Below, in pieces: positions 1 to 53,104 of a stretch of 64,000 bases of DNA. The position numbers were made by a program, and so were the translations under genes. The stretch lies in the IMG/VR virus record IMGVR_UViG_3300029913_000001; one strand, 5' to 3'. Numbering within the stretch: the stretch's first letter is position 1; each line of letters starts with the position of its first letter. The notes below the pieces were generated by a model. The model saw only the letters and a program-made list of their open reading frames with translations, searched no databases and had not been told where the DNA came from. The DNA is from a virus (taxonomy: Duplodnaviria > Caudoviricetes).

Positions 1-52
1 ACATTCCTTCTCCCTGAAGCGATTCGAAAATTTCACCAACCTTAATTGCCAT
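1..52 (-). CDS. queE: 7-carboxy-7-deazaguanine synthase QueE (radical SAM), N-terminal 17 codons only; runs off the window
   Basis: Not in the ORF track. ATG at 52 follows the RBS TAGGAG and reads MAIKVGEIFESLQGEGM, the typical QueE N-terminal EIFxSxQGEG motif. It lies downstream of folE and queD-like genes. Confidence 0.8.
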   Translation of the reverse strand, partial: MAIKVGEIFESLQGEGM

Positions 53-59
53 AATTCTC

Positions 60-590
60 CTAATTTACATAAATCAACTTAATTTTGGTTTCATCAAACA
101 TCGAAAGTGAAATTTTAAAATCCTCACCCCATCGAGGATGATCTACGTCTGGGTTAATGCACGAAATTTCTTTAATACCGGCTTGAATAATTGCTCCTGC
201 ACAACCTTAGCAAGGAAACCAATCTAATGCAATCCCCATTCCTTCTAGCGACGTTCCGAGACGAGCTGCATTATAAATTGCATTCGTTTCGGCATGAACA
301 GTATATTTGTATTTTAACGGACGCTCATTTCTTTCATCTATTTTCTTAATTGCTTCGAGGCGAACTGCACGCGGAATTGAACAACCCACTTGACGTTCGC
401 GTTCTTGTAATTTCAAGTCAAATGCCTCTCCTGAATCGTATACTCCTCTAGGAAACCCGTTATATCCAATACTAACGATTGAATTAGTAGTTGGATTGTA
501 AATTACGGCGCCAACCTTTGAGGATGTATCTTTGCTCCACTTAGCAAAAAATGATGCAGCCTCTACAAATCTTTTATTCCAATTAATCAT
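60..590 (-). pseudogene. dCMP deaminase with one in-frame TAA (207-209) inside the PCxxC zinc motif; pseudogene or sequencing error
   Basis: HAETNAI motif present. The frame continues past the stop as WFPC*GCAGAIIQAGIKEISCINPDVDHPRWGEDF...VN to TAG at 60-62. Confidence 0.8.
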
Positions 591-1645
591 TATTTAAAAA
601 ACCTCATCATACCGTGTGAACTAAAAAACTTTGAATATGAATTATCCAAATAATTTTGGGTAGCAGATCGATCATACAATGAAAGAATAAGTCGTATTCG
701 CTCGACTAAATTCATTCGATTTCTTTCATAAGATTTCCAATTTTCTGTCCACACAGACGGATACAAAAAATCTCGATCATGCTTAAAAATTTCTGAATAA
801 CTTAATCTATCCGGGGCAATTGGTATTGCACCTAAAATTGGTCCCTCGGATCCCATCGAAATACCCAAGGTTTCCTGCAATGCCGCGGAAAAAACAATTT
901 TACTCTTTGCCAGCAAAGTATGATACTCATGTTTACTTAGCGGTGTATCTTGGCAAACAATAAATTTCATCTCTGGAATATATTTAGCAAGATCTCGAAA
1001 AATTTCAACTTGCTTTTCTGGTGCGATTCGATGGGGAAATAAAATAATATCTTCTTTTGGAATCGTTTGATATGGTTTTAATACATCAACCATATATTCA
1101 TAAGGATGCCCGCATCGAATAATTCTTAATGGTCCAATATCTTCACCTGTATGCGGATATGCTTTGAGGAATAAATCCTTATGATAATTGGTTGCAAAAT
1201 ATACATGATCATATGCAAAAAACATGCTCTGCTCTGCATACTGAATCCATTTTTTTGGACCAATTAATCTTCCGAGAAAATCTTGAGAGTCATAATTTCC
1301 TGCATGTATCTGGGCATGAAGTGTTACTGGAATACCCAGTAATTCACTCATATATTTTACATTAATTACTGAGGGATTCCAAAAATCAGTAAACAGAAAA
1401 TGATCACCGGCTTTAATAATGCCATCACAAAACATTCTACTAATCTGTTCAAGCTGATTACTTTTCCAGGCATTTGTTCCACCGAAGTTTAAAAATGCTC
1501 CTGGAGTAGTTGCCTCTGGGATGTTAGTTGGGCCAGTTATAACCGTTACATCAAATCCTTTTGATCGAAGTAACTTTGGAATATGAACGCTCCACTGGGA
1601 AGTGTAACGATTTTCCAAACTTTCGAGTTCAACAATATATATCAT
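590..1645 (-). CDS. Glycosyltransferase (GT-B/GT4-like)
   Basis: C-terminal ILFPHRIAPEKQ and LQETLGISMGSEG motifs resemble the GT-B nucleotide-sugar binding region. Confidence 0.7.
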   Translation of the reverse strand: MIYIVELESLENRYTSQWSVHIPKLLRSKGFDVTVITGPTNIPEATTPGAFLNFGGTNAWKSNQLEQISRMFCDGIIKAGDHFLFTDFWNPSVINVKYMSELLGIPVTLHAQIHAGNYDSQDFLGRLIGPKKWIQYAEQSMFFAYDHVYFATNYHKDLFLKAYPHTGEDIGPLRIIRCGHPYEYMVDVLKPYQTIPKEDIILFPHRIAPEKQVEIFRDLAKYIPEMKFIVCQDTPLSKHEYHTLLAKSKIVFSAALQETLGISMGSEGPILGAIPIAPDRLSYSEIFKHDRDFLYPSVWTENWKSYERNRMNLVERIRLILSLYDRSATQNYLDNSYSKFFSSHGMMRFFK

Positions 1646-1653
1646 AATTAATC

Positions 1654-2106
1654 CTATTGGATAAATTCCATATGAGCGCCGTTTTCTCCATCTTCGGAAA
1701 TATCAATAATTACATCTCTGCTAGGATATCTTTCCTCAATCTGAATAAACAAATCCTCACACATCATTTCACAGGATCTATAATCCAATTTAAGAATTTT
1801 ATCATCATAAAAACTTTCGAGCCACTGTTTAAAAAGGATAAATTCTATATCTCGATCGTTCGAATTAACAGAAATTTGAACTTTAAAATGGAAAATATGC
1901 CGATGAGGTGAAGCAAGATAAGAAACTTTTTCTAACGCAGGATCGTCTGCTGCGGCAGGATAATAATGAATGCCAGATTTTTGGAATGTAACCCAGATAA
2001 ATTTATTTACATTTGATAATCTAAGAGCTTGATTATTCTTATTTGCTATTTTAATAGCAGATACTATTAATGCTTGTTCCTCTTCAAGAGTGTTTTTATT
2101 TACCAT
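1654..2106 (-). CDS. Divergent QueD/6-pyruvoyl-tetrahydropterin synthase-like T-fold protein
   Basis: PHRHIFHFKV (His-x-His metal motif), SCEM and EDGENGA motifs; located in the folE-queE cluster. Confidence 0.6.
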   Translation of the reverse strand: MVNKNTLEEEQALIVSAIKIANKNNQALRLSNVNKFIWVTFQKSGIHYYPAAADDPALEKVSYLASPHRHIFHFKVQISVNSNDRDIEFILFKQWLESFYDDKILKLDYRSCEMMCEDLFIQIEERYPSRDVIIDISEDGENGAHMEFIQ

Positions 2107-2993
2107 TTAATATATCCTCTTCCATAATTCTTTGGCCTATTTAAGGCATCGCTGAATGCTTTCTGCCATTCACTATTACGATCATAACAGGTAGTCCAGA
2201 ATTTGTCAATGTCTAAATAATTTGATTCAATATAGAGTCTAGCCTTATGCATTGCATCTAGAAAACATGATGCTCTGGGACTAGGGTGAACCACAACAGC
2301 AGAGGCCCAATCCATTTGAGAAGTATCCATCTTTTTACCAACCGCATTAATAATCAAAGCTTCGTTATTCAAAATATTTTCCGAGGAAGTTTCATTGCCA
2401 GCTCGAATATCAATGATTATATCATAGCTATCAGAATGTCGTTCATTAAGAGTTATACCTTCCGATAGCCAAATATCTAAATTACTATGCCCATCAATAT
2501 CAATAACTCCGATATTATTATATAGTTTTAATGTCTGATAGGCAACATATGCAAGAAATCCAGTTCCTAATATTAAAATATTTTTACTATAATAAATCTT
2601 ATCCGGCATTAATGTACACGGAAATAATATCAAATTAATTCCGCACGCAACCGGTTCTAAGATGTATTTCGGCGCAGCTTCTGGAACAAATACATATTCA
2701 TTTGCACGAACGTTATAAAAATCTGAATATGCAGGCTCGCCGCGAGTCGCGACATAATCTCCAACGCTGATATCCTTTATATCCTTACCAACTTTTGTTA
2801 CCTGTCCCAAACCTTCATGTCCGGACATAGTATAAGGTAAGGTAAATTTACCTTGCATCATTGCAATATCACTGCGACATATACCGGTCATTATACTTTT
2901 AACTTCAATTTGATTGCTATCTGGCTCGGGTTTATCCCAAAACATTTCTCGAAACTTATCGTCCCCATCTGTTACTAATAATCGAGTTTTCAT
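2100..2993 (-). CDS. Medium-chain (zinc-type) alcohol/sugar dehydrogenase
   Basis: GICRSD, GHEGLGQV and GDYV motifs, and Rossmann ILILGTGFLA. Confidence 0.8.
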   Translation of the reverse strand: MKTRLLVTDGDDKFREMFWDKPEPDSNQIEVKSIMTGICRSDIAMMQGKFTLPYTMSGHEGLGQVTKVGKDIKDISVGDYVATRGEPAYSDFYNVRANEYVFVPEAAPKYILEPVACGINLILFPCTLMPDKIYYSKNILILGTGFLAYVAYQTLKLYNNIGVIDIDGHSNLDIWLSEGITLNERHSDSYDIIIDIRAGNETSSENILNNEALIINAVGKKMDTSQMDWASAVVVHPSPRASCFLDAMHKARLYIESNYLDIDKFWTTCYDRNSEWQKAFSDALNRPKNYGRGYIKW

Positions 2994-3037
2994 TTATACC
3001 TTATCTAAAATCACTATTTGATTATTTTCGGCATCAT

Positions 3038-3910
3038 TTATAGCGTATGTAAAAACCTATCAATTTTATATTGGTTATACCAAAAATCTTCATTATCAAA
3101 ATTATGAAGACAATCTAAAATCATTGATTCATATGCTTCTTCTGGACAAAGACCCAATGGAAAGAAATCTTTTCCATTGAAAAAAATACCAATTCGATCT
3201 GGTTCGTTTGTTTTCCACGCGGCATCTAAAATATATGTTTTCCCGCAAATATCGGCTACAATTTTTGCAGTATCGTCCACATCATATACTCCGTTTTCAT
3301 TTACCGGTCCATAATCAGAACCATCGTGCGCAATAGTTTTTAAATCCCAAACCTGACGTTTAATATTCTCAACAACGGTGCAATACTCCCAATTTGCACC
3401 GGCTAGTGCAATCATAATGCTAGCAAGATGTGGAAGAATATCCTTACTAATTCCACCAAGAGATTTTGCTTTTTCAGTAAACCACGAACCCGGGCGAGGA
3501 ACTCTATTCTTAGTTCGCCACTCGATATCTATTATCTCTGTTTTTGCCGCTCGTTCGATTAACGCCGGAATTTCTTTTCGCCACATATTATTTTTAGTCA
3601 TAGTAATTCGAGTGTTAGGATTTAATCCTACCAATCGATTCCATCGTAATTGGCTTTGCACTCCCGGCTTTTCGACGAATACAATATCCGTTTTAGCTGC
3701 AATTTTTTCAGCTATATCTTCATGCAAATAATTAGGAACACAAATATGGGCTATATCAAAATGCATTGTACTTGGAATCTGTTCAACCGAAGTATAATCC
3801 GGAAACTTCAAAACATCGGGATCTACTCTAATAATAGTAGATCCCGCTCGTTCGTAAATTGGCCTATATACAGCATCGCCAAAACCACAACCAACAATTA
3901 ATATATTCAT
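3038..3910 (-). CDS. Gfo/Idh/MocA-family NAD(P)-dependent oxidoreductase
   Basis: N-terminal IVGCGFG, ICVPNYLH, VFVEKPG and GGISKDILPH motifs. Confidence 0.8.
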   Translation of the reverse strand: MNILIVGCGFGDAVYRPIYERAGSTIIRVDPDVLKFPDYTSVEQIPSTMHFDIAHICVPNYLHEDIAEKIAAKTDIVFVEKPGVQSQLRWNRLVGLNPNTRITMTKNNMWRKEIPALIERAAKTEIIDIEWRTKNRVPRPGSWFTEKAKSLGGISKDILPHLASIMIALAGANWEYCTVVENIKRQVWDLKTIAHDGSDYGPVNENGVYDVDDTAKIVADICGKTYILDAAWKTNEPDRIGIFFNGKDFFPLGLCPEEAYESMILDCLHNFDNEDFWYNQYKIDRFLHTL

Positions 3911-3912
3911 TA

Positions 3913-4608
3913 TTAACCTTTCATAGATGCAACAATATGAAAAAATTCATCCTTTTGGGATTGTGATTCCCTGATAGAACCGCGTACAACACTTGTTGTA
4001 AATGCGCTTTCAGCAGCCTGAACGCCGCGCTCTGTAAGACATCCATGAGATGCCTTAATTAGTACGGCTACACCCTTTGCTTCTGTAATACGTTCAATTT
4101 CATCTGCTATCTGAACCGTTAATTCTTCTTGAATAGTTGGACGATTTGAAAACCATTCCGTAATGCGATTAAATTTAGATAATCCAATTACTTTCTTACC
4201 GGGGAAAACACCGATATATGCAACACCGGTAATATTTTGGAAATGGTGGGCACAAACCGAATGAATTGCTATTGGTCCTGCTACTAATAATTGATCATAT
4301 TCTTTTGCGTTCGGAAAACTAGTAACCTTAGGCTCTGGCAAATAACGCCCACTAAGAGTTTCAGTAATATACATCTTAGCCATACGGTGAGCGGTATCTT
4401 TTGTATTATGATCGTTACGAGTATCTATTACTAGACTAGATAATACCGATTCCATTTTCCTTGCTACTTCGTCTTCTAATAAATGTAATTCGGGGGGATT
4501 GATAAATTTACTAATATTATCCGTTGATTTAAAATTTGCATTTGCTCGAGTAATACGTTCTTTAATAACCTCGGAAATACAAACCGTTCCTTCTACAATA
4601 TTCTGCAT
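3913..4608 (-). CDS. folE: GTP cyclohydrolase I
   Basis: SVCAHHF, GLSKFNR, RPTIQEELT and HGCLTERGV motifs. Confidence 0.95.
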   Translation of the reverse strand: MQNIVEGTVCISEVIKERITRANANFKSTDNISKFINPPELHLLEDEVARKMESVLSSLVIDTRNDHNTKDTAHRMAKMYITETLSGRYLPEPKVTSFPNAKEYDQLLVAGPIAIHSVCAHHFQNITGVAYIGVFPGKKVIGLSKFNRITEWFSNRPTIQEELTVQIADEIERITEAKGVAVLIKASHGCLTERGVQAAESAFTTSVVRGSIRESQSQKDEFFHIVASMKG

Positions 4609-4635
4609 TATTATCCTTTTTATTCGATATAATTA

Positions 4636-4664
4636 ATTATAAACCATAAAATAGTATTTGTCAA
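4636..4664 (-). promoter_or_regulatory. Sigma70-type promoter for the folE operon
   Basis: TTGACA (4664-4659), 17-bp spacer, TATAAT (4641-4636). Confidence 0.8.
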
Positions 4665-4736
4665 ACATGAATAAATAATGTTGGCCACTACGCTAAGAAC
4701 GTATGCCAACTCTAAAGCCCCAAGGAGGCAATCAGC

Positions 4737-5869
4737 ATGGATATTTATTCAGACAAAACTATCAACTTCGTATTATGTTCTATGAAAATTCATCATGGAA
4801 AATATTCTTATCCTCAAACCATATTTCGAATTAACACCGAAAAAGTAATTATAACATGCCCTATACACGGAGATTTTCAGCAAACACCCAAGATGCATCT
4901 TAACGGTACTAACTGCCGATTATGCTCTTATAAAAATAACTCTGAAAAGTATACAAGAACAAAAGAACAATTCATTAATTTAGCCAATAAAAAACATTTG
5001 AACAAATATTCATATGATAAATCAATATATGTAGGCTGCAAAATTCCATTAATAATTACCTGCCCTATACACGGAGATTTTCAGCAACTACCGGCCAATC
5101 ATTTGATAGAAAGTGGTTGTTCCTATTGTTCTCATGGTGCGGTACGGCAAATTTTATTCGAAAGGCAAATATAATTCATAAAAAATTCTATACATATCAA
5201 GATTCGGACTGTAGGGGCAGTGAAATACCATTAACTATTACCTGTCCCATTCATGGAAATTTTAGTCAGAAACCAGTTAATCATCTTCGTGGCAGTGGTT
5301 GTCCTGTATGTGGCCGGGATCGAACTACCTGGAATTTAAATGATTTTCTATTAACAGCTAATAAATTACATAATAAATATTATTCTTATGAAAAAATTAT
5401 TTGGCGCGGTGCACAAGAAAAAATTGAAATTATTTGTCCAAAGCACGGATCTTTTTACCAAAAAGCATACGGTCATATATATGGTGCCGGTTGCCCAAAA
5501 TGCCATCTAAGCCACGGTGAAAGAGTAGTTGAAAAATACCTATCAGAAAATCATATAATATTTTCTGTGCAAATTAAAATTCCAGAATGACGTGACAAAA
5601 AATCGATGCCATTTGATTTCGGTATTTTTAATTCTTCAAATAAATTATTAGGACTTATCGAATATCAAGGAGGTCATCATTATCTTAAAGTTAAATGGAA
5701 TAAAAACATGACAGAACTTGAGGCTGAAAGACGATTAAAGAAAGTTCAACATCATGATAAGCTAAAAATGGAATTTTGCCAGAAAAATAATATTCCATTT
5801 TTAGCTATTCACTATCAAGATAATGTTTCTGCGGTACTTTCAAAATTTATTACTCGTATAAATTATTAA
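4737..5869 (+). pseudogene. Decayed free-standing homing endonuclease (repeated CPxHG zinc modules plus C-terminal PD-(D/E)xK-like domain)
   Basis: Three ORF pieces joined by a frameshift near 5140-5170 and an in-frame TGA at 5588-5590 (IPE*RDKKSMPFDF). It is the only plus-strand gene in its neighbourhood and has a hairpin (GTTGGC...GCCAAC) and AGGAGG upstream. Confidence 0.75.
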
Positions 5870-7409
5870 AAGATGTTAGGGAATTTTTAGTCTTTTTTCC
5901 GGTATTCCTACTAGGTGTACCGGAAAATTTTTGCCAGTATGCAGTATAGTGATCTATTAATTTCATAGCCTTACCATAATCACTGGTTGAAAAAATATCC
6001 TCGATAATGTCTTTTAAATACAGTCGATCATAGTACATCATTGGTTTATTACCTTTTGCAAGAGTTGATAATGCCGCCGGATAAAGCCCAGAGTCATATT
6101 TCTTATTGCATTCTATTACAGTCATAATATGCATATATACATTATGTGCCATTTGCAAAGCGTAACTAAACGAATCAAACGAAGTCTTTCCGATTTTGCC
6201 TAACTTATTTAGATCCGTTGGCCCGTATGAACAAATATCATGCCCGGTTAATCGAGCACTAATCGGACTGTCGATAAATTCGTCAAATATACCATCTTGT
6301 TCGAGAATATCTTTTAAGGATCGCATGTCGGTTGAATATTTTTTATCATCGATAAACGGCGCAACAAAAAAAGTCCAATCATCTTTAGATGCATCGAATA
6401 ATTTATAATAAATTGTGGCAAACGTCGAAGAAAGGAACGGTGTTGCGCAATCATAACTAAGCGTTATTTTTGGATTATGATATTTGCGCAATGCTTTCTG
6501 CACATCTGTTAATAACAAACTCCATTCTAAATTGCTATTGCCTAAAAAGTGAATCCAATCGTGAATGCCGGGTTCCAAAAGGCCATCAAATCTCTGCTGA
6601 ACCAACATCTTTAGAGCTAGGTGAGGATCCGCAGATGTCTGACTACCATAGGCCCAGCCATTAAACGGAGATTCATATTGTTTCGGATCGCAATATTTCT
6701 TTACTTGCTTATACCAATCTTCTGCTTCGGCGTGTGTATTTCCCTGCAAAATATTAAGAAATTTACACGACCCGTTTCGATTTCGCATAAAATATTCGTT
6801 ATTAATTTGCGTTGCCTTAACTGCGTCTGCATATGTATTAATGCCTGTTAACTTTCGAACTCGATCTTTCTTCACAATAACTGGACTAACATCAAGTGTC
6901 ATCCCGTATTGTGCTTTTAGATTGCAATCCATCCAATTCAAAACTTGTTTACGTTTTGCCCCAGCCCTAGGACAATTAGGATCTTTCCAATCGCCGGACC
7001 ATTTTTCATTTCCGGATAGAATCTGAAACCCGCCACTATCGGCTAGAATAAAATCAGTTTGATCCCGCTCATATACCATCGATTCAGATTGTGCAATTTT
7101 TGTTAAATCCGTGTGCCCGGCTGAATAAAGATTATGACTATAATTAAAATAACCATTCTTTTTATCTAACCAATTTAAACCATCAATTGATCCGTTGAAT
7201 CCGACAGGAATTCTAGACGGATCAACCTCACCACGAAGATGATATTTTTGTCGTCCGATATATCGTATAAAAAATGTGCTAAGTGCAGGCAAATATAATG
7301 AATACTTCGCTAATCCGGTTTTTGGATCAAATAACTCTTTATCAATATTATGCTGTGAAAATTCCACTATGTTGCCACCTGTATCGGTAATACTCGAACT
7401 GTTTGCCAA
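5850..7409 (-). CDS. tRNA-guanine transglycosylase (TGT/DpdA)-like base-exchange enzyme
   Basis: ILADSGGFQI, MTLDV, LNILQG, WIHFLG and SYDCATPF match TGT barrel motifs; co-located with folE/queD/queE. Confidence 0.75.
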   Translation of the reverse strand: MANSSSITDTGGNIVEFSQHNIDKELFDPKTGLAKYSLYLPALSTFFIRYIGRQKYHLRGEVDPSRIPVGFNGSIDGLNWLDKKNGYFNYSHNLYSAGHTDLTKIAQSESMVYERDQTDFILADSGGFQILSGNEKWSGDWKDPNCPRAGAKRKQVLNWMDCNLKAQYGMTLDVSPVIVKKDRVRKLTGINTYADAVKATQINNEYFMRNRNGSCKFLNILQGNTHAEAEDWYKQVKKYCDPKQYESPFNGWAYGSQTSADPHLALKMLVQQRFDGLLEPGIHDWIHFLGNSNLEWSLLLTDVQKALRKYHNPKITLSYDCATPFLSSTFATIYYKLFDASKDDWTFFVAPFIDDKKYSTDMRSLKDILEQDGIFDEFIDSPISARLTGHDICSYGPTDLNKLGKIGKTSFDSFSYALQMAHNVYMHIMTVIECNKKYDSGLYPAALSTLAKGNKPMMYYDRLYLKDIIEDIFSTSDYGKAMKLIDHYTAYWQKFSGTPSRNTGKKTKNSLTSFNNLYE

Positions 7410-7561
7410 AAACCACCGCCGTTATAATATGCTATATATTCTTGCTGAATTTCAACCGGTTCTAGCCAATAAACATATCGTGTTTTGGGATCGGTAATTT
7501 TTAAAAATGCAAATTTAACTTTTGACCGTACGGCTCCGTATTCAACTTCTTTCCAATGCAT
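7367..7561 (-). CDS. Hypothetical protein (64 aa)
   Basis: ORF with AAGGA RBS, in operon orientation. Confidence 0.5.
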   Translation of the reverse strand: MHWKEVEYGAVRSKVKFAFLKITDPKTRYVYWLEPVEIQQEYIAYYNGGGFWQTVRVLPIQVAT

Positions 7562-7582
7562 ATTTTTCCTTTCTTTTAAAAG

Positions 7583-7602
7583 AAGGGGGATAAATCCCCC
7601 TT
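7583..7602 (-). terminator. Intrinsic terminator after the clamp gene
   Basis: AAGGGGGA-TAAA-TCCCCCTT hairpin followed by a U-rich tract on the minus strand. Confidence 0.65.
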
Positions 7603-7607
7603 AATCT

Positions 7608-8339
7608 TTATTTCGCTAGCGAAAGTACTGTATATTGATGAACCGCGAGCCCAGTTGTTACCTTAATCTCCATTGCGCCGGCATCCGCAATTGAAAGCAC
7701 CTTATCTCCGGTTAGACTCAAAATTGCTAACACGTTTGACAGCGGCCATTCACGGGGTGTCTTAATGGAGCCAGTAACTCCGGCGGCGAACACAAATTCA
7801 CCAGTATGCGAACTATGATCGCCTAAGACAAGGCAAAGATTTCCATTTGATACAGATGCGGTAAATGTATTTGCGCTGCCTGCGGCCTGAGTCTGAAATT
7901 TCAACCGTTGAATTGCATTATCGGTTGGTACGATTGAAATATTCCAAGCAATTGCCTTACGAGTCTTAGAAGGTAACTGCTCTTCAACTACATCTCGGCT
8001 CATGAATCGATAATCGTTTCGGAAATCTCGAGATGCATTCGCAAATGAAATACCAACGGGAACATCTGTTCCATTAACCGTCTGCTTCGTTACCGTAATG
8101 AATGCGTTTTCCTTATATTCTGGAATATTTAAAATAGTATTAAGACGACCTAAATCGTGCAAACCAAAAACCCCTTCTAATTCAGGAATTGGCTGCACAA
8201 ATTGTGAATTAAGAACAACCGTTTTGTCTGCGGCCATTGCATTAAGCTCGGTAGCAGTATCGGTGCCAGTAACCTTAACTAGATCAAGAAAACCTAGAGC
8301 ATGGGAGTATGCGATTATTTCGCGTAGTGTGTCAATCAT
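7608..8339 (-). CDS. Putative DNA polymerase sliding clamp (gp45-like)
   Basis: About 243 aa from ATG 8339 (RBS AAGGA). It follows the polymerase, and FGLHDLGRLNTIL resembles the gp45 xIYDLxxFL segment. Confidence 0.55.
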   Translation of the reverse strand: MIDTLREIIAYSHALGFLDLVKVTGTDTATELNAMAADKTVVLNSQFVQPIPELEGVFGLHDLGRLNTILNIPEYKENAFITVTKQTVNGTDVPVGISFANASRDFRNDYRFMSRDVVEEQLPSKTRKAIAWNISIVPTDNAIQRLKFQTQAAGSANTFTASVSNGNLCLVLGDHSSHTGEFVFAAGVTGSIKTPREWPLSNVLAILSLTGDKVLSIADAGAMEIKVTTGLAVHQYTVLSLAK

Positions 8340-8413: not shown

Positions 8414-9622
8414 TTATTCAAAAAAATCAAAAAAGGTATTAATTTTACGAGTCCCTTCTTCTATTGCTTTCCATATTGGTAACTTTCCCAAGAGATTTTC
8501 TAACTTTTTATCTACCACCGCGGCAATCATTGCATCATTGTCAAATGGTAGTTTAGTAAACCAATCCGGTAGATGGGATTCATCTGTTGGATAAGCAACC
8601 GAAGTCATATTCAGTTGATTCTCTTTTAAAGGGCAAACCACACACTTCTGCCCATCAACGATACGAGTATGAACATTATCGTTATTCATTTTTCTTAATG
8701 AATTCCAATTAATTGCCGCTCTGACGTGTCCAGGAACTCGATTACCTTTTCCTTGTGCAATTTGGTCCGCATAAAATGTTAGCTTGTTGACACGCTTCGG
8801 TGTACCTTGCTCATGTAATGGCAATGCTTTAAACTTATCCTTGAATATATTAATTTTTGCTGTTAAATCATCAACTGTTTTACCTTGTAGTAAATCCATT
8901 AATATTTCACTTAAAAATTTCTGGCAAACTTCCGGGGTATCACTGCGACGCAAATCTAATCCCATTGCTTTTAATTTTAAATGATCGTCACCATAAAACT
9001 TACCATCTTTAAAATAATTAAGAATTGCATATCGTTTTTTAGTAATATATAAACCACGATAACCTACTGATTCGCAAGATGATTTAATTAATTGACCAAA
9101 TTTATCCGGACAATTATACGATCTCTTCATATAATCGGCGTAAGAATCGTTAACTTGCTCTCCAATCTTCAAATATAGCTGAACTGCAATATCTCGATTC
9201 CATTCAACTTGACCTTCATCTATCATATCTTTCATCACTGGCCAAGCCGAAAATTGAGTTGAATCTGTATCCCCATAATGAATTGCTCTTCCTAGATAGT
9301 TATATTCTCCAGTTATACATTCATTAACAAACGAACTCTGATGCCTTACAATTCCCCTACCGGTTAAAGTAACCGATTGCCCTACACGTTTGTCAAAAAA
9401 ACGAGAACTTGGTTGGAGCAGCGTTCCATATGTCGCATTGAGTAGGAGTTTTTTTGCGTGCTGCAATCCATCATAATATTCTACCTGTTTTTTAATTTCC
9501 GATATGTTTTTAGAAAAAATTTTTCCATTTCGGATTTCAAGATTATTATTTGTTATAAATTGTTTAATATCCGAGATATTTCCATTAACAAATAACTCCC
9601 GAAGTTTTTTTACTTCCACCAT
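8414..9622 (-). CDS. Family-B DNA polymerase, C-terminal subunit
   Basis: Motif B KKLLLNATYG, motif C YGDTDS and KKRYA. It has its own RBS (AAGGA) inside the upstream HNH ORF. Confidence 0.92.
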   Translation of the reverse strand: MVEVKKLRELFVNGNISDIKQFITNNNLEIRNGKIFSKNISEIKKQVEYYDGLQHAKKLLLNATYGTLLQPSSRFFDKRVGQSVTLTGRGIVRHQSSFVNECITGEYNYLGRAIHYGDTDSTQFSAWPVMKDMIDEGQVEWNRDIAVQLYLKIGEQVNDSYADYMKRSYNCPDKFGQLIKSSCESVGYRGLYITKKRYAILNYFKDGKFYGDDHLKLKAMGLDLRRSDTPEVCQKFLSEILMDLLQGKTVDDLTAKINIFKDKFKALPLHEQGTPKRVNKLTFYADQIAQGKGNRVPGHVRAAINWNSLRKMNNDNVHTRIVDGQKCVVCPLKENQLNMTSVAYPTDESHLPDWFTKLPFDNDAMIAAVVDKKLENLLGKLPIWKAIEEGTRKINTFFDFFE

Positions 9623-10803
9623 ATATGATCCTTATTATAATTATACTCAGATAATGGCATCATTACAACACCTATTTCCTTTAATGTTTTACCACCATAT
9701 ATTTCCGAAAACCTAATTCGTTCAGCAAATTTCCTTTTAGTGGTGCCGGGAATAACAAAATTTAGTATTGATAAATCCCTGGGACTATGATTTTGCAAGG
9801 CACACCGTGATTTCATATACTTTAAAAAATCACCAAGTAAAAAATAATAATTTTCAAAATTAGCAACAATTACTTTTTCCAATGATGTGCCCGCTACTCG
9901 ATAATATGTATTTGAAAAATCTTTCTTCCCGATTAATTTAAATTTTTTATCACGAATATCTAATACTCTTTTATTATTTGGATTATTCGCAGTTGCAAAC
10001 CCTTTATTTTTAAAAATTCTTCCTTCGATAAATCCTTCAGGACGTGGCGCATTTTCATTAATTCTTAAAGTTTCCCCGGTAGTATTATTTGACACCCATC
10101 TTGATTCTGTTATATATGAATAATCGGTGTGTTTTAACCAATCGGGGTATCCCTTAACAAACCCAGGTAAAATTTCATGCATTTGTGCTACTTCTCTCGT
10201 TTTAGGATTATACTGCCATATTTTACCAGTAAAATTCCGGCTGCATAAATCCTTTGACTCTTGGGTACGCACTCTACCTGTTTGAAAAGGCTCCCACTCA
10301 TCTGATTGAGATCCAATCGACATACGTAATAACTCTTTGGTTATTTTATGACGATAAATATTCGTATCCGCAAATAATTTCGACATATAATCACGCTGTT
10401 CTTGTGTTCGCACTTTCCCGGTATTATTTTCAGATATTAGTTTTGCAAATTCTATACGAACGGCCTGATATAACCGGCAGTTAGTAATTCCTCTAGATTT
10501 TGAGACACGGCGCATCTGATTAAATGAGTAAATACAACTGCGATCACGAATTGATTTAAATAATAGATAATGTAGAAGATAATGAGCTTTAGGTTCAACA
10601 ACGATAATATTCCAGGATTCATGCTTATATTCAGGAAATATCGCCACCGGCAAAATATGATGTTTCTCTACTGAACCCAAACCCGATTTGACTAAATCCT
10701 GCGGTAAAAATTTTAGCAATTTAAAATATCGAATAAATTGTCTTTCGTTTTTAACTTTTCCGGTATTGCGAAACATATTTTCCATGTAAAATAAATCGAA
10801 CAT
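9610..10803 (-). CDS. HNH homing endonuclease with NUMOD-like repeats
   Basis: EKHHILP...NII...HYLLHYLL HNH pattern and GKVRTQEQRDYMS/GRVRTQESKDLCS repeats; located between the two polymerase halves. Confidence 0.75.
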   Translation of the reverse strand: MFDLFYMENMFRNTGKVKNERQFIRYFKLLKFLPQDLVKSGLGSVEKHHILPVAIFPEYKHESWNIIVVEPKAHYLLHYLLFKSIRDRSCIYSFNQMRRVSKSRGITNCRLYQAVRIEFAKLISENNTGKVRTQEQRDYMSKLFADTNIYRHKITKELLRMSIGSQSDEWEPFQTGRVRTQESKDLCSRNFTGKIWQYNPKTREVAQMHEILPGFVKGYPDWLKHTDYSYITESRWVSNNTTGETLRINENAPRPEGFIEGRIFKNKGFATANNPNNKRVLDIRDKKFKLIGKKDFSNTYYRVAGTSLEKVIVANFENYYFLLGDFLKYMKSRCALQNHSPRDLSILNFVIPGTTKRKFAERIRFSEIYGGKTLKEIGVVMMPLSEYNYNKDHIWWK

Positions 10804-10901: not shown

Positions 10902-12557
10902 CTAAGAGGAAAGAGCATCAATTAAATTATCTGGTATCGTTATACCAAATGATAAATCTACAAATTCTTCTTTTTTTGCTTGTAGTTCTTTTCTTTCTGC
11001 ATACCATTTAGCTAATAATCCAGGAATAATCGCTTCTTGATCATAACTAAAAATTGTTCCGTTACCACTTAGCATCCATTTCTGATCGCTATAAAAAATG
11101 ATATCATAAATCTGAGAAGCTGAAAGAGTATCACTTGTACCTGTTGATTCCCAATCAATAATAATATCTACGCCAGGTTTTCGATCAATAACCGCCTGAT
11201 ATTCTAGAGTTGAAAAAACACCCTCCCACGCATGAGAATAAGTCATGCCTTTTTGTGACATTTTTTCAGCAACAAATGCCTCTGTAAGTGTGGGGCGCAA
11301 CTGTCCAATAATAGTTTCTATTCCCATGTTTAATGCACGAATTGTACTAGGATATAGTGAATTAATATCAATTACACCTAGCCATTCGTGAATTCCTACT
11401 TTTGGATCGGCTACATATGCGCCTACTGCGGCTGGCTCGTCATCGTCTTTCTGAGAACTATATTTTGGTTTATTTGGAACAATCATACCCAAATCATGGG
11501 CTCTATTAATAATAGCCTGGTCTGTTTTGGCTACGGTTCCCATACAAGTAGGTAAAAGAGTGGTTGTATCATGGGCGACAACATTAATAAGTTCAATAAA
11601 CTTTAATTTATTGTCTAACTGCTCCAATAGATTAACATCTTGCCTATTATATCTAATAAATAATTCAAAATCATTATTATATAAATCATCTAATGAACCT
11701 TTATATTCAGTCTTACTACTTCCTAATTCATATTCAGCAATAGAATTTAATGAATATGAATGACGTTCTTCATATGTGAATTTTCGGTATAAATCCATCA
11801 TATCGATATGAATCTTGCCAACTAATTCATACGTCTTAAATTCTTTACCATATTTTTCAACTACTTTAGCCTTTGGTTTTTCATTCCAGGATAATTCACA
11901 TAATCTACGAGTATCATCTTTACTCATCACTCGTTGGATTCGATTAACAAGATATGGAATATCGAATCCTTCGCTATTCCATCCTGATATAACATCGCTG
12001 TCTTCTAATATATCGAGAGCGGCATTAAGCATATCAACTTCATTATCGAACACATATGTGTTCTCGAATTTATTTGCTATACTCTGCCCCTCGTCGAAAG
12101 TAATAGTTTTAGGTGGAATTGCTACAGTAATTAGTTTATTACACCAAACTAGATCAATTGTAATTGCGGTTATTTTATTAAAGGGGTCCTCGATGGGCGA
12201 GTATCCCTTATCCTTATCGAAATCAACTTCGATATCGATAAGAGCAACATGAAGATCAGGAGCGGGCTTACCTTTATAATTTTCCGATAAACATTTAAAA
12301 GTAAGATTTAAATCTGACTCCCAAATCTTTTTATCTGTACCTTTAAGGATCGCTAGTTCTTTGTAAAATTCACTAGAAGTTTTAGGGGTAATTTTTGTTA
12401 GAGGCGTATTATAAATTGATTTATAAGACCCATTCGGATCATCGATATAGAAACTATAATCGACAGGATAATTATTGAACACTCTCTTGCCATTGACTCG
12501 TTCGATAACTTCAATACGATCATTCTTACGATCTATTCTAGCTGTAATATATGACAT
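10902..12557 (-). CDS. Family-B DNA polymerase, N-terminal subunit (3'-5' exonuclease plus motif A)
   Basis: ExoI DIEVD, ExoII WNSEGFDIPY and motif A DINSLYPS. Confidence 0.92.
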   Translation of the reverse strand: MSYITARIDRKNDRIEVIERVNGKRVFNNYPVDYSFYIDDPNGSYKSIYNTPLTKITPKTSSEFYKELAILKGTDKKIWESDLNLTFKCLSENYKGKPAPDLHVALIDIEVDFDKDKGYSPIEDPFNKITAITIDLVWCNKLITVAIPPKTITFDEGQSIANKFENTYVFDNEVDMLNAALDILEDSDVISGWNSEGFDIPYLVNRIQRVMSKDDTRRLCELSWNEKPKAKVVEKYGKEFKTYELVGKIHIDMMDLYRKFTYEERHSYSLNSIAEYELGSSKTEYKGSLDDLYNNDFELFIRYNRQDVNLLEQLDNKLKFIELINVVAHDTTTLLPTCMGTVAKTDQAIINRAHDLGMIVPNKPKYSSQKDDDEPAAVGAYVADPKVGIHEWLGVIDINSLYPSTIRALNMGIETIIGQLRPTLTEAFVAEKMSQKGMTYSHAWEGVFSTLEYQAVIDRKPGVDIIIDWESTGTSDTLSASQIYDIIFYSDQKWMLSGNGTIFSYDQEAIIPGLLAKWYAERKELQAKKEEFVDLSFGITIPDNLIDALSS

Positions 12558-24912: not shown

Positions 24913-27174
24913 TTATTTCTCCTGTACCGGTTTCTTAATGGAAATAGGAAAAGTATTAATTGCTGTTCCAATTACAAGATTATTACCCACCCAATCTAAA
25001 TTAACAGTCGCTCCGTTTGGAATGATTCCGTTTAATAGTTTAACGCTAAGTGGATATCTAATTAAAGAATCAATAATACCAGAAATCTTTCTTGCCCCAT
25101 ATTCATTACTCTTATTTAGCTCGAGCACATGGCTGATAAGATTTTCAGTCGCAATAATAGTTAAATTTTTATCGGTAAGCGCAGCGATTTCTGCAATTTT
25201 TGTTTGTGCGATTTTACGATAACTAAGATCGTCCAAACTATTATATTCAATCATAGCTGTAATGCGTCCTCGGATTTCAGTGAGGAAAACATTATTAATA
25301 GCCTTTGTAACTGCACTCATGCCATTTGAGTCCGGAATAAAACCTAAATTAATCTTACTCTTTTCTCGACTGCCTACATTACTACTCATAATAATAATTG
25401 TATTTTTGCAATCGGCTGTTTTTCCACTGGCACTTGAAATAGTACCTTCATCCATCATCTGAAGAAGCAAGGTGTATAAATTTGGATTTGCTTTTTCGAT
25501 TTCGTCGAAAAGAATAACCGAATTTGGATGCTTCATTAAATCGTTGATAAGTTTGCCTTCTCCTGCATCCCCATCCCCATATCCTTTATATCCAGGGGGC
25601 GCACCGATTAATGTCGCCATTGCGTGATCTGCCTGATATTCACTCATATCGTAACGAAGTAAATGCATATTCATATACGATGCAAGTTGCTTTGCGGTGT
25701 AAGATTTACCTACGCCGCTAGGGCCGGTTAGTAAAAAACTACCAATGGGTTTAGATGGATCTCGCAACCCGGCTTGTGAAATAATTAGGGACTCGGCAAT
25801 TTTATCAATTGCATGTGTCTGATGGAAAATTTTTGAATTTAGGGTCTCTCGAATATTAAGAATATCGGCCGCGTTATTCTGATCAGTCGTCTTAACCAAA
25901 ATGCCGGTACTAGTTTCGATCTCTCGAATAATATCCAATTTTGTAATACGCTTATTCTTATCTTTAGCAACCGTTTTACGGGCGCAAGCAGAATCGATCA
26001 GATCAATTGCTTTATCTGGAAGCTGCCGATCTGGCTGATAACGAACGGATAATTCGACTGCGGCTTCGATTGCATCGTCCTGAATACGGCATTTATGGAA
26101 TTTATTAAAACTGTTCTTAACTCCTTGAAGAATTAAAATAGTTTCTGCTTTACTCGGTTCCTTTAGAGCAAGCAATCGAAACCTACGCATAAGAGCGGTA
26201 TCTTTCTTAAATGTCTGGGTATATCCATCCCATGTAGTTGCTGCAATAACTTTAATATTACCGCGACTAAGTTCAGGTTTCAACATTGCTGAAAAGGCAA
26301 CACCGGAATCATTTGAGCCGCCTCCGGAATTAATCTGTTGAGCCTCATCTATAAAAAGAATGGCATTTTTTTCATTAACTAATGCGGCTAAGACATTCTT
26401 AATCTTTTCCTCAAAATCTCCTCGGAAATGGCAACCGGCTAAAACCGATCCAACATCTAGACTATAAATAATCTTATCTTTTAAAGTACTGGGTACAATA
26501 CCCGCATTAATATTACGAGCTAATCCTTCAATTAATTCCGATTTACCTACTCCAGGTTCCCCAACCACAAGTACATTATTCTTTTTCTTCTTCGACAGTG
26601 CATGTGCAATGTCAAACAATTCAATTTCCCGGCCAATTAGCACATCGGTAGTACCTTTAACTTTTTCATTTAAATTCACACAAAATTCAGCTAATGCGGT
26701 AGTTGACTGTGTATCAGACGTTGTTAATTGATCTAGTCCGTCAATAATTTTGGAAGTAATGCCGTATTTCTCTAGAAAATAACTAGCATACGACTCCTTT
26801 TCGTTATATAACTTACGAAAAATATCACCAAAAGTTACTTCTCTGCCATATTTTGTGGCTTCGGAGTAAGCCGAAACTAAAACTTTTTGCACCGAGGCTG
26901 TAATTTGCCCAGTCATAATATTCGGCTCGTTACTGGCAATTTTATTTTGAAGTCTAGGAGTTTGTGCTTCGATAAACTTTTTGATGGCCTCAGCCATCAA
27001 ACTAACCGAAACTCCCTGATTTTCGAGATACTTCCGGACAGATGAATACGACAAACTTGCATAAAGAATATGTTCGAGAGTAATAGTTGTTTGATCTAAA
27101 TTAATAGCAAGCTGAAAACTAATATCAATAAGATTCTTAATTAACGGCGATCCGTTCGAAGTAGCAGTTGGCAT
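24913..27174 (-). CDS. clpA: ClpA/ClpC-like Hsp100 AAA+ unfoldase
   Basis: Clp N-domain (EHILYA), Walker A motifs GEPGVGKS and GPSGVGKS, LFIDE and LFDEIEKA, and a ClpP-docking LGF loop (KINLGFIP). Confidence 0.85.
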   Translation of the reverse strand: MPTATSNGSPLIKNLIDISFQLAINLDQTTITLEHILYASLSYSSVRKYLENQGVSVSLMAEAIKKFIEAQTPRLQNKIASNEPNIMTGQITASVQKVLVSAYSEATKYGREVTFGDIFRKLYNEKESYASYFLEKYGITSKIIDGLDQLTTSDTQSTTALAEFCVNLNEKVKGTTDVLIGREIELFDIAHALSKKKKNNVLVVGEPGVGKSELIEGLARNINAGIVPSTLKDKIIYSLDVGSVLAGCHFRGDFEEKIKNVLAALVNEKNAILFIDEAQQINSGGGSNDSGVAFSAMLKPELSRGNIKVIAATTWDGYTQTFKKDTALMRRFRLLALKEPSKAETILILQGVKNSFNKFHKCRIQDDAIEAAVELSVRYQPDRQLPDKAIDLIDSACARKTVAKDKNKRITKLDIIREIETSTGILVKTTDQNNAADILNIRETLNSKIFHQTHAIDKIAESLIISQAGLRDPSKPIGSFLLTGPSGVGKSYTAKQLASYMNMHLLRYDMSEYQADHAMATLIGAPPGYKGYGDGDAGEGKLINDLMKHPNSVILFDEIEKANPNLYTLLLQMMDEGTISSASGKTADCKNTIIIMSSNVGSREKSKINLGFIPDSNGMSAVTKAINNVFLTEIRGRITAMIEYNSLDDLSYRKIAQTKIAEIAALTDKNLTIIATENLISHVLELNKSNEYGARKISGIIDSLIRYPLSVKLLNGIIPNGATVNLDWVGNNLVIGTAINTFPISIKKPVQEK

Positions 27175-47969: not shown

Positions 47970-48000
47970 AAGTATATTTATGCTTTGAAAAATAGTAGAT

Positions 48001-48372
48001 TTAGAGCCTGTTAATGTAGTTACCTATTTGGTCTAAAAACAAGGATGGGGGAGGAAGTTTCATTATGGACCTACCTGTGCTCCAGATGTAGCTGATCTCC
48101 ACGTTCTTGATCCAGATATGATGACTGCTTGACTGGACCTCAGCCCCCGACACCATGCTTGCCCAGTAATTGGATGGGTGAGAACCGCTCTCCGCAGGGA
48201 CAGCCGCCGTCAGGATCGTAATTCCGTCGCTGGCGTAGACCGCTGGGGTGCCGATTGGAGCGAGAACATTAACATCCGTCTCCCCGGTGATTCCCGCGCC
48301 GTTATCAAACAGGAAGCCGAAGTCGTAGCTCCCATCCGAGTTGCTCTGCATAGTTGTGATTCTGTCTGCCAT
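48001..48372 (-). CDS. Small protein downstream of the tail spike (possible assembly chaperone)
   Basis: Start MADRIT at 48372 after AAGGAG; shares the high GC content of the spike gene. Confidence 0.5.
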   Translation of the reverse strand: MADRITTMQSNSDGSYDFGFLFDNGAGITGETDVNVLAPIGTPAVYASDGITILTAAVPAESGSHPSNYWASMVSGAEVQSSSHHIWIKNVEISYIWSTGRSIMKLPPPSLFLDQIGNYINRL

Positions 48373-48380
48373 GATGCTCC

Positions 48381-51300: not shown

Positions 51301-52331
51301 TCATAGGTATAGCCAAAAAACGTATTATTAATCGCATTGCCTAGAGTAGGATTGCCCGTGGCATTTAGTTCGATTCCAGCCCCGCTTCCGGTAGCCTGCA
51401 CATCTTCGAATATATTATCGTTCACCCACCCGTTAGAAGAAGCCGATATATAAATGCAGCGATAACCTCCGTAGCAGCGGATGTGCTTGAATGGAATGAA
51501 GGCAATGCCATAATACGAGGCGGTTGAAGATACATAAATGCCATAACCGCCCGGCTGCCCTTCGGCAGACTCCGCACTCACATTGAAGTTGAAGTCCTCA
51601 ACTCCCCCCGTGGCACCATCAATAGAGTTTTCGTTGATTGTGATTTCCTTCCCGGTATAAGCTGCTGTGCTAGGAAAAGTAGTATGAAGGCCCTTGATCG
51701 TTCCGTTCGGTCCCTTTAGGAACATGTTCGTGGAGTTTGTCGAAGGAAGTACATTGGTGGCAGGATCAAAGAGCAACGTTTGGGAAGGCCCTGACATGCT
51801 ACCCGGAGCAACATGCACCTGCGCCGCAATATAGATTGTTAATGCTCCGTAGCATCGCGCATCCACTGTGCCGCCGCTAGAGATGTCCGCGAGAGCCGCC
51901 GTAATCTGCACATCGGCGGTCGCCCCAGCATAAGAGCAGGAAGAGACAATACTGTTCACAGCGCCAGCCGCGACGTTGCCTGAGAATGTGCCATTACCAG
52001 TGGACCCGTCCAGGGTAATCGACGGTGCGATCGGAGTGCCTACCGCGAAGGTACCAGGAGCTGTTACAACCTGCGAACTACCACTGCCTGTTGCGGTCCA
52101 TCCAGACGGCAATCCTGTAAAACTAGAGCAAGTAATTGCTCCATTAGATGCGGTTGCTAATACAGGACAGTTAGCCGCAATGCCGGCGCCAGTAAAAAGA
52201 TTTGCCCAAGCTCCTGCGGCGGTATTTGCTCCGGTTCCCCCATTATGGATGTTAACGGTTGTTATATTTTGGGCAATTAAATTAATGGGCAATAAACATA
52301 AAAATAAGAATAATAATTTTTTAGCTAACAT
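48381..52331 (-). CDS. Tail spike/fibre-like protein with two beta-helix-like modules and a signal-peptide-like N-terminus
   Basis: 1316 aa, Gly/Thr/Ser/Asn rich and clearly more GC-rich than its flanks. Contains GADV..I.A.L...GG motifs of pectin-lyase-like domains and NTTGNYNSAQGY repeats. Confidence 0.7.
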   Translation of the reverse strand: MLAKKLLFLFLCLLPINLIAQNITTVNIHNGGTGANTAAGAWANLFTGAGIAANCPVLATASNGAITCSSFTGLPSGWTATGSGSSQVVTAPGTFAVGTPIAPSITLDGSTGNGTFSGNVAAGAVNSIVSSCSYAGATADVQITAALADISSGGTVDARCYGALTIYIAAQVHVAPGSMSGPSQTLLFDPATNVLPSTNSTNMFLKGPNGTIKGLHTTFPSTAAYTGKEITINENSIDGATGGVEDFNFNVSAESAEGQPGGYGIYVSSTASYYGIAFIPFKHIRCYGGYRCIYISASSNGWVNDNIFEDVQATGSGAGIELNATGNPTLGNAINNTFFGYTYENPSGIGGVGILYSGTSFIQNSFIGGGASIDGTGAVFQNTNTFAASIGSLSYFSPIWGNVSNNSFASGTATNGTATTSFQTNSSLLNNGVTSAGENLTGYGFGVNGAGGNYYQQGAAFGAYLKTFNTAGFKWYCMYGSNNPSLCATLDPSGNFLVPGSMSSPAIIPTNITPSTSPVCANGTGGALTTTGCAGGSGSYLPLTGGTLTGALSGTSASFSGNVAAGAVNGVYSVAQFPGADVGAKINACLAALPSGKGTCDTRGLGTGVFPMAQITIGNGQKLQCDFGQEFQPTTAAETMVIQNNNSIITGCWFDASNQAAFSGEVISYTDNYRDGSQTTLEHSKLTAYPVRTGTAIYISATNAATQSIYTVAFNDVTIEGFQYGRYLTATTTGFINSVSFNGVQDSYSIIGTEINPTSTGLIARNNFIADNFQALIPGDIGIQIDGAGTWQQNYWTNLSIWDTNNGIVINNTTTNAGNFFFGSFDGYAVTDPTGTNTFCNQYNGVCKYGNTITLEASSIRSFGSVGGANLYAGGVLPFASQSEAMAGFNASTGNGEADWYTGLYTGASSYAHQWWAPNSSGTAWQSLMTLNDSGTLTPIGGLSTPILTVGSITSPAATSATDSASLGPELTTSGTCSGTGWTGTYPNYVAPGTTAPLTCTGFTSGSFYQISAGITGNTGSGTVTVAIGTAQTYTSSTAASSTLTFSPKANGTSLTYTPTAAFNGTIAISAKKINPITTFSYTGKDSTGAVSTTMLYQGLASLHNIFEGGGGTYNTTGSYNSAQGYNALYSNTTGNYNSAQGYNVLYSNTTGNYNSAQGYQAGQFISDGSTANATSSNSVYLGANTEAKASGDTNENVIGNGAVGNGSNTSTVGNTATVGTWLNGTQHITATAPITSAGTIAAYSTNAGGEITGLSAATSVTITFANSGWTNAAFCTANASTTLATNVYNSAQSNTAVTFTFPSLTGNLFYHCEGN
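48856..48989. repeat. 51-bp coding tandem repeat, about 2.6 copies (17-aa YNSAQGYNxLYSNTTGN)
   Basis: Units start at 48856, 48907 and 48958. Confidence 0.9.
50626..51986. repeat. Identical 32-bp direct repeats flanking the first beta-helix module
   Basis: TTCACAGCGCCAGCCGCGACGTTGCCTGAGAA at 50626-50657 and 51955-51986 (encodes FSGNVAAGAVN). Confidence 0.9.
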
Positions 52332-52971: not shown

Positions 52972-53104
52972 TAAGATTCCTCTCTTATATTTATATCCAA
53001 CTCGCAAATGTAAAACCAATAACTAGAGTTAGTAGATATAAGCGAGTTGTGTGGCCTGCCGCATAAATGTGGCGGCTCACGTTAATGAATATTTTTTACA
53101 AAGA

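Follow-up and report, generated by a model that had tools for sequence, protein, structure and literature searches.

The left end of IMG/VR record IMGVR_UViG_3300029913_000001, a 64,000-nucleotide stretch of virus DNA (Duplodnaviria; Caudoviricetes) that is called the window below, carries genes for 7-deazaguanine synthesis together with a glycosyltransferase (GT), an oxidoreductase of the Gfo/Idh/MocA family (Gfo) and a zinc-dependent medium-chain dehydrogenase/reductase (MDR). Judged by its gene content, this cluster appears to be an operon for DNA modification, belonging to a jumbo phage from peat that has not been cultured and is a distant relative of Pseudomonas phage PA5oct. The interpretation favoured here is that guanine in the phage DNA would be replaced with a deazaguanine made by a DpdL-type route, and that this base would additionally be glycosylated and its sugar tailored; we regard this complete interpretation as about evenly poised between right and wrong. 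The evidence for a gene system is good, while its chemistry is unproven. Among described systems, the nearest is that of phage phiST, in which the deoxynucleoside of 7-deazaguanine (dDG) occurs in DNA; among cultured phages, PA5oct and Acidovorax phage ACP17 are the nearest relatives.

Genes of the deazaguanine operon

All of the genes that a first-pass annotation of the window had named in this region were found at their places on the minus strand (Table 1). As described there, the run from folE to queE is tightly packed behind one promoter, with intergenic distances of -7 to +44 bases and a sigma-70 consensus matched at 12 of 12 positions, which precedes the folE start by 28 bases and is the sole perfect match in positions 1-7700. 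The gene of a 519-aa protein resembling tRNA-guanine transglycosylases (TGTs) lies upstream of folE, and the identities of the genes support the earlier description: a member of the TGT superfamily accompanies genes for 7-deazaguanine, and the GT and the two oxidoreductases fall outside the canonical que set. The reported absence of queC and queF from the window was borne out, no Pfam match to QueC or QueF being obtained among the scanned open reading frames (ORFs) of at least 100 aa. The folE product scored 135.7-164.2 bits with the NCBIfam FolE models, in all cases under their own curated cut-offs (162-202). A megablast search of positions 1-7500 against phage records gave no match.

The gene previously called QueD-like had to be renamed: its product, which reads YLASPHRHIFHF, stands as a paralogue of QueD but is not QueD itself. 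It has no Pfam or NCBIfam match and carries Leu where QueD has Cys, and its LASPHRHIF stretch (L-ASP-HRH-I-F) fits the LxxxHRHxF signature. This signature replaces the CxxxHGH of QueD and defines DpdL, the predicted decarboxylase of 7-carboxy-7-deazaguanine (CDG) in phiST and ACP17 (PMC10516641). In tblastn searches, the protein was 53% identical to ACP17 gp125 (2e-33) and 30% identical to the phiST locus with CGPG_00067 (2e-13). By its signature it is assigned to DpdL and is predicted to decarboxylate CDG to 7-deazaguanine.

A true QueD is encoded 49 kb from the operon, with PF01242 above the cut-off and a CSSCHGH stretch fitting CxxxHGH; since this canonical enzyme is present, FolE, QueD and QueE are all encoded. 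The full queE gene (283 aa) was recovered from the identical contigs L019-L022, and its product is 26-36% identical to the annotated QueE of PA5oct; the full protein from contig L020 scored 24 bits with Radical_SAM, under the cut-off of 29.5. Taken from these signatures, the pathway would be a QueC-less, DpdL-type (dDG-like) branch, not a plain CDG pathway.

The TGT-like protein and the GT were folded from alignments of metagenomic homologues. The former gave no Pfam (PF01702 included), NCBIfam or PHROG match and no PDB match by sequence or profile. At the same time, its model had a predicted local distance difference test score (pLDDT) of 88, and its top 50 Foldseek matches were all tRNA-guanine transglycosylases. 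When representative chains were compared with VIA-align, arcTGT reached Z 19.1 (root-mean-square deviation, rmsd, 4.5; 291 residues aligned), followed by QTRT2 (Z 18.5), bacterial TGT (Z 17.2), the DNA preQ0 insertase DpdA (7ui4; Z 16.0, rmsd 4.0, 290 aligned) and Cap10 (Z 15.0), as against Z of at most 12.3 for unrelated TIM barrels. Among 30 homologues, D124-SGG-Q129 (in LADSGGFQ), D173, G223 and D320 (SYDCATP) are invariant, and F128 and Q222 are nearly so. The catalytic aspartates of the superfamily, in the DSGGFQ-type motif and, as nucleophile, in the FDCVxP-type motif, are thereby represented by D124 and D320; D124, D320 and D173 presumably correspond to D102, D280 and D156 of the Zymomonas mobilis TGT. 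Comparison with phiST DpdA3 (CGPG_00065; 259 versus 519 aa) gave a BLASTP E value of 6.7 and an hhalign probability of 0.4, and the relation to ACP17 gp123, a DpdA, is marginal, with a non-significant hhalign result and motifs that line up. The protein represents a separate, larger branch of the TGT superfamily, its family having at least 2133 members in the metagenomic protein set.

The GT likewise gave no Pfam (Glycos_transf_1 and Glyco_trans_4 included) or NCBIfam match and no PDB match by sequence or profile. Its model (pLDDT 83) is most similar to BshA (3mbo; Z 22.8, rmsd 2.7, 293 residues), with sucrose-phosphate synthase (6kih; Z 22.7) and MshA (Z 21.4) among the further matches, and the 351-aa protein is accordingly modelled as a GT-B fold nearest to the retaining enzymes of family GT4. 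The best viral structural match was ACP17 gp124 (TM score 0.86). T4-type DNA glucosyltransferases fall outside the structural matches listed, which is no evidence against a DNA substrate. The invariant residues of the family are H205, R206, K211, E258 and E267, the glutamates being spaced as E-x8-E in this protein; the invariant Arg/Lys and the glutamates may be the donor-binding residues and the counterpart of the E-x7-E-type pair in the C-terminal domain of such enzymes. With a mean column identity of 68%, the GT gene ranks with the best-conserved ones of the cluster, and its family comprises at least 7999 members (90% clustering, metagenomic set) on contigs of up to 376 kb.

The Gfo protein keeps the VGCGFG glycine loop (GxGxG), E80-K81-P82 and D157/H161. 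When the profile of its family was compared with PDB, DgpA (7xr9) was found at 2.7e-9, DgpA2 at 6.7e-5 and glucuronide 3-dehydrogenase at 1e-4, so that DgpA precedes the other solved family members by 4-5 orders of magnitude, at a score of just 40 bits; the EKP and GG..D...H regions correspond in the alignment. The substrates of DgpA are aryl C- and O-glycosides, in which it oxidises the hydroxyl at C3'' (PMC9939296, PMC11239390). With this glycoside 3''-dehydrogenase as its nearest solved relative, the profile gives a lead, suggesting that Gfo may act on a sugar that an aromatic aglycone already carries and that a nucleotide sugar is not its substrate. In the MDR, the zinc ligands C39, H59, E60 and E113 (followed by P114) and the cofactor loop GTGFLA (GxGxxA) are present; among solved structures, threonine, xylitol and ketose dehydrogenases come closest, the match being confined to the N-terminal domain. 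We assume that a ligand set of Cys, His and Glu with an additional Glu marks the polyol-dehydrogenase type.

Table 1 Features of the operon and related features in the window
Feature	Position	Strand	Evidence or remark
queE, 5' end, 17 codons, runs out of the window	1-50	-	translation MAIKVGEIFESLQGEG
dCMP deaminase with in-frame TAA	66-590	-	PF00383 and phrog_174
GT4-type GT-B glycosyltransferase (P0002), 351 aa	590-1645	-	AlphaFold model and structural matches
DpdL, QueD paralogue (P0003), 150 aa	1654-2106	-	LxxxHRHxF motif; phrog_17812, 1.2e-35
MDR zinc dehydrogenase, 297 aa	2100-2993	-	ADH_N, 42.8 bits (cut-off 23.5)
Gfo/Idh/MocA oxidoreductase, 290 aa	3038-3910	-	PF01408, 35.8 bits (cut-off 24), and PF22725
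folE, GTP cyclohydrolase I	3913-4608	-	PF01227, 155.6 bits
Promoter-like site, TTGACA-17-TATAAT	4664-4636	-	12/12 match to the sigma-70 consensus
Three ORFs of homing-endonuclease families	4737-5869	+	Pfam/PHROG matches (DUF723, phrog_559/681/9084)
TGT/DpdA-superfamily transglycosylase (P0001), 519 aa	5850-7409	-	DSGGFQ motif, TGT-type fold
Terminator-like hairpin, two-way	7583-7602		between an upstream structural-protein gene and the TGT-like gene
Canonical QueD, 6-carboxytetrahydropterin synthase	53164-53712	-	PF01242, 77.3 bits; KCSSCHGH

Linkage of the operon genes in related phages

The first-pass annotation had made its proposal dependent on whether the GT and the oxidoreductases are linked to que genes in relatives, and this linkage held in 80 of 80 contigs and in the phages PA5oct, ACP17 and Phosso. 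A search of viral contigs with a Gfo alignment gave 80 loci, which form 47 clusters at 90% identity and have pairwise identities down to 38%. All of them are collinear on a single strand in the order TGT-Gfo-MDR-DpdL-GT, the full order being family-B DNA polymerase (PolB), TGT-like protein, Gfo, MDR, a protein of about 175 aa, DpdL, GT, phosphoribosyltransferase, FolE, QueE and flap endonuclease (FEN). Wherever the flank of the contig reaches far enough, the partner genes are present (MDR in 74/74, TGT-like in 72/72, DpdL in 65/65 and GT in 55/55).

Additionally, a search of viral contigs seeded with the GT gave 13 loci, every one with DpdL immediately upstream of the GT; the TGT-like gene, FolE and QueE surround this pair, and the Gfo-MDR pair is also found in seven of the loci. 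GT and DpdL genes are adjacent in ACP17 and Phosso and are separated by no more than 4 kb in PA5oct, BCSR5, BUDD and X1. DpdL occurs without a GT in phiST, RHph_I1_18 and others, whereas a GT without DpdL was never seen, which places the GT downstream of DpdL in the pathway. The GT, Gfo and MDR genes are integral, conserved members of the operon.

Further genes accompany the operon in relatives. A full-length GalE-type epimerase gene directly follows the GT in loci L008, L009-L011, L016 and L018 and was undetected in most Gfo-seeded contigs, and one relative lineage has cytidylyltransferase, phosphomannomutase-like and UDP-sugar dehydrogenase-like genes just upstream; such genes are consistent with a supply of nucleotide sugar. 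The protein of about 175 aa between MDR and DpdL, related to ACP17 gp122 and PA5oct EST35_0364, was found in 67 of 73 related contigs (for example at L009:7345-7872, besides 57 other loci). It has no Pfam match, and its profile has no PDB match; comparison of Atlas features gave weak leads to TIM-barrel glycosidases (score 0.90, few shared features). The gp122-like protein is likely to be a further enzyme of the pathway.

In PA5oct (genus Wroclawvirus), homologues of the TGT-like protein (33% identity), GT (42%), DpdL (48%), Gfo (30%) and MDR (36%) are encoded, and the PolB-to-FEN synteny is shared, but the genes are distributed over three loci: TGT-like, GT and DpdL genes in succession with QueE 1.3 kb further on, a Gfo-MDR pair with the gp122-like gene, and a FolE-QueD pair. 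In ACP17, by contrast, QueD, FolE, gp122, a DpdA, GT, DpdL and QueE form a single run. The Gfo and MDR homologues of PA5oct (EST35_0362/0363; L005:6870-8638) are without the glycine loop, the EKP motif and the Cys/His ligands, and these copies may be inactive or repurposed. No discussion of the GT or the oxidoreductases of PA5oct and ACP17 was found in the literature.

Proposed route and competing explanations

According to the functions of their families, FolE, QueD and QueE would convert GTP to CDG, from which DpdL would strip the carboxyl group, giving 7-deazaguanine with no QueC step, and the divergent TGT-fold enzyme would swap guanine in DNA for the deazapurine. The retaining-type GT4 enzyme would move a sugar from a nucleotide sugar onto the deazaguanine. 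The DgpA-like Gfo would then oxidise a hydroxyl of the glycoside's sugar, probably at C3, and the polyol-dehydrogenase-type MDR would reduce the resulting keto sugar, the net effect being epimerisation to an unusual sugar. In the end, restriction would be blocked by a 7-deazaguanine carrying a sugar. The sugar steps might take place on DNA or on the free base, in which case the TGT-like enzyme would insert the finished base, much as the eukaryotic TGT handles queuine. We lean towards the free base, because the relatives of Gfo and MDR act on small molecules and the TGT-like enzyme is unusually large; the proteins of the cluster are all acidic, the TGT-like enzyme included, and net charge does not separate action on DNA from action on the base. 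A more specific version, which we consider decidedly improbable, is that the GT forms a C-C bond between a hexose and C7 of free 7-deazaguanine, that Gfo and MDR invert the C3 hydroxyl, and that the TGT-like enzyme inserts the C-glycosyl base; since decarboxylation by DpdL would free C7, a sugar at this position would, speculatively, fit the DgpA lead.

Several observations weigh against glycosylation of a DpdL-derived DNA base. The weakest point is the acceptor, which is unexplained, as 7-deazaguanine offers no hydroxyl or exocyclic amine of the kind used by known GT4 enzymes. The decarboxylase activity of DpdL is itself a prediction in the literature, and expression of dpdL and dpdA of phiST or ACP17 in Escherichia coli produced no dDG (PMC10516641). 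Judging from the lost Gfo and MDR motifs, the tailoring step would be dispensable or altered in PA5oct, and neither gene lies nearby in 6 of the 13 GT-seeded contigs. Profile hidden Markov models for the gp122-like protein, the epimerase and the phosphoribosyltransferase remained unmatched in the window together with 10 kb to its left (74 kb). Moreover, gene order may be conserved within one phage family in part because of common descent and not because of a common function.

The first-pass annotation had left the target as DNA or tRNA. The DNA part of this alternative is strengthened, and DNA is the far likelier target, because the operon stands beside the polymerase, dDG is found in phiST and PA5oct DNA resists restriction at G-containing sites. 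In phiST, dDG was measured to replace dG in DNA fully (PMC10516641), and the resistance of PA5oct DNA to cleavage at five G-containing restriction sites indicated, by restriction tests, a modified G (PMC12191111). Modification of phage or host tRNA by the TGT-like enzyme and its pathway is therefore considered very unlikely: DNA polymerase and FEN adjoin the operon in all relatives, it is the DNA of PA5oct that shows the resistance, the dDG of DpdL-bearing phiST is in DNA, and an ARAGORN scan of the window for tRNA genes was negative. What speaks for tRNA is a fold as near to the tRNA transglycosylases arcTGT and QTRT2 as to DpdA, together with the glycosylation of vertebrate tRNA queuosine by an enzyme of the GT4 family (QTMAN/GTDC1). 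Slightly less probable still is that FolE, the protein of the 6-pyruvoyltetrahydropterin synthase (PTPS) family, the two reductases and the GT make a glycosylated pterin comparable to the biopterin glucoside of cyanobacteria, and no DNA base. The set does parallel GTP cyclohydrolase, PTPS, reductases and pteridine glycosyltransferase, and the Foldseek list of the GT includes, at rank 50, a tetrahydrobiopterin glucosyltransferase (9v0l); ordered by Z, however, it is outside the best 50, so that the GT is no nearer to this enzyme than to any other of GT4. QueE and the TGT-like gene are constant in the operon, and DpdL is without the catalytic cysteine of PTPS and QueD (PMC10516641).

Two further explanations accept the deazaguanine and detach the sugar from it. 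The sugar enzymes might act on a small-molecule intermediate, leaving the DNA base sugarless, with the sugar as a transient handle or carrier or with nucleotide-level traffic that involves the phosphoribosyltransferase. This is unlikely in our estimation, although the nearest solved relatives of Gfo and MDR use small molecules, the cluster proteins are acidic and phiST achieves full replacement without a GT; a transient sugar is without precedent in deazapurine pathways, the GT belongs to the best-conserved genes of the cluster, and the small phosphoribosyltransferase in the operon of relatives, which also fits such an explanation, can be understood as salvage of the guanine freed by base exchange. 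There is also a small chance that the sugar enzymes are unrelated to deazaguanine, serving another base, a phage or host protein or the envelope, and that early genes are merely packed by the replication module. Jumbo phages hold many glycosyltransferases, one of the GT2 type being encoded a few kb left of the window, and all loci come from one broad phage family with a conserved PolB-to-FEN order. Against this, the three genes are located between the TGT-like gene and DpdL/QueE in 80 of 80 contigs, at identities down to 38%, the adjacency of GT and DpdL recurs in ACP17 (156 kb, Busanvirus) and in Sinorhizobium phage Phosso (469 kb), and of enzymes for modified pyrimidines no hydroxymethyl-pyrimidine enzyme was seen in the window, where ThyX alone was found.

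Inserts, genome context and comparison with known systems

Two elements of the region are inserts and not parts of the system. In the dCMP deaminase gene, a TAA at 207-209 falls within the PCxxC zinc motif, read-through giving PC*GCAGAIIQAGIK, and the HAE and PCxxC motifs are not intact in one frame (PC*GC). Four assembly loci (one JGI sample and three ENA samples) agree with the window letter for letter across the shared 11.6 kb; as all four share the stop, a sequencing error does not explain the TAA. Nor did ARAGORN detect a suppressor tRNA in the window. The gene is absent from a freshwater relative, whose contig joins position 52 to 584, and from contig L007; the insert is thus lineage-specific, and the gene is probably a pseudogene. 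The homing-endonuclease ORFs between the TGT-like gene and folE occupy two frames, with a stop separating the second from the third. They are missing in L007, the closest viral contig, where the TGT-like gene abuts folE, and in the freshwater relative 656 different letters replace 4459-6025. These ORFs look like a broken, decaying, lineage-specific mobile endonuclease. Because they intervene on the opposite strand, the TGT-like gene is outside the run served by the folE promoter in this phage.

The family-B DNA polymerase near the operon is encoded in two parts on the minus strand, N-terminal (10902-12557) and C-terminal (8414-9622), which a 397-aa ORF (9610-10803) with no family match separates; the PA5oct polymerase is likewise split, by a Hef-like homing endonuclease. 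About 3.7 kb to the left of the window, four genes past queE, a short adenylosuccinate synthetase (343-362 aa; L020:14277-15365) is encoded, which is closest to archaeal PurA (5k7x, 1e-61) and then to the phage PurZ type (1e-35), and which could be either PurA-like and metabolic or PurZ-like, as for 2-aminoadenine DNA. Also a few genes beyond queE are those of an anti-CBASS phosphodiesterase of the Acb1 type (L020:15736-16227) and of a glycosyltransferase of family GT2 (L020:16224-16877).

Elsewhere in the window, ARAGORN made a starred tmRNA-like call at 55747-56172 on the minus strand (tag peptide ADSIVNGATKIFTYPVKISNRELALA). The G+C content, about 0.35 in other parts, is 0.51-0.54 at 48000-52400, which covers a 1316-aa ORF without Pfam match (48381-52331); the adjoining protein (52321-53019) has a major-tropism-determinant N-terminal domain. 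This part may be a tail-fibre/receptor-binding region of different origin or with repeats. A nucleotidyltransferase of the CCA-adding/poly(A) polymerase type with an HD domain, ThyX, and a ClpB-like chaperone with a DnaJ neighbour are also encoded (59143-60462, 62060-62872 and 24913-27174).

Many peat metagenomes from 2019-2020 contain the phage at full identity, and a diverged relative was found in freshwater runs of 2025; the longest contig with the GT comprises 292,778 bases. In peat RNA libraries of two studies, contigs correspond at 100% identity to pieces of the GT, DpdL, MDR, Gfo and folE genes and of the endonuclease ORFs (window 941-5465). They hint that the phage is active in situ, DNA carry-over being possible and transcription not demonstrated.

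Compared with described systems, the operon shares with the phiST dDG system (FolE, QueD, QueE, DpdL, DpdA3 and a MazG-like protein; Cui, Hutinet et al., NAR 2023, PMC10516641) the QueC-less FolE/QueD/QueE set, DpdL, a TGT-superfamily enzyme and a position by replication genes. In contrast, phiST has no GT, Gfo or MDR, and its 259-aa DpdA3 has no significant similarity to the 519-aa protein of the window. The bacterial Dpd system and the phage DpdA1/DpdA2 systems (dPreQ0, dADG, dPreQ1) share the exchange of DNA bases by a que-fed enzyme of the TGT superfamily, but they need QueC plus DpdB/DpdC or QueF and insert preQ0-type bases, QueC and QueF being those not found here. Glucosylation of 5-hydroxymethylcytosine by the alpha- and beta-glucosyltransferases of T-even phages is comparable in its use of a phage GT-B enzyme, a nucleotide sugar and a non-canonical base for counter-defence; the acceptor of the T4 enzymes, however, is a pyrimidine hydroxymethyl group in DNA, of which 7-deazaguanine shows no evident counterpart, and T4 is without sugar-tailoring dehydrogenases. 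DgpA of gut bacteria is catabolic and works with the C-C-cleaving partner DgpBC, whereas the Gfo of the window has an MDR partner and a place in a biosynthetic operon.

Literature searches found no glycosylated deazaguanine in phage DNA. To our knowledge, eight 7-deazaguanine derivatives have been described from phage DNA, none of them sugar-bearing, and we know of sugar-decorated DNA bases among pyrimidines and of none among purines. If the favoured interpretation is true, common environmental jumbo phages use an undescribed DNA chemistry, and a glycoside at C7, if that version applied, would give the first known case in a genome of a C-glycosylated nucleobase and of a sugar-bearing purine. 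Such a base would also bear on the evasion of restriction and CRISPR, on sequencing, and on the action of modification-dependent nucleases, among which the END nucleases hit PA5oct.

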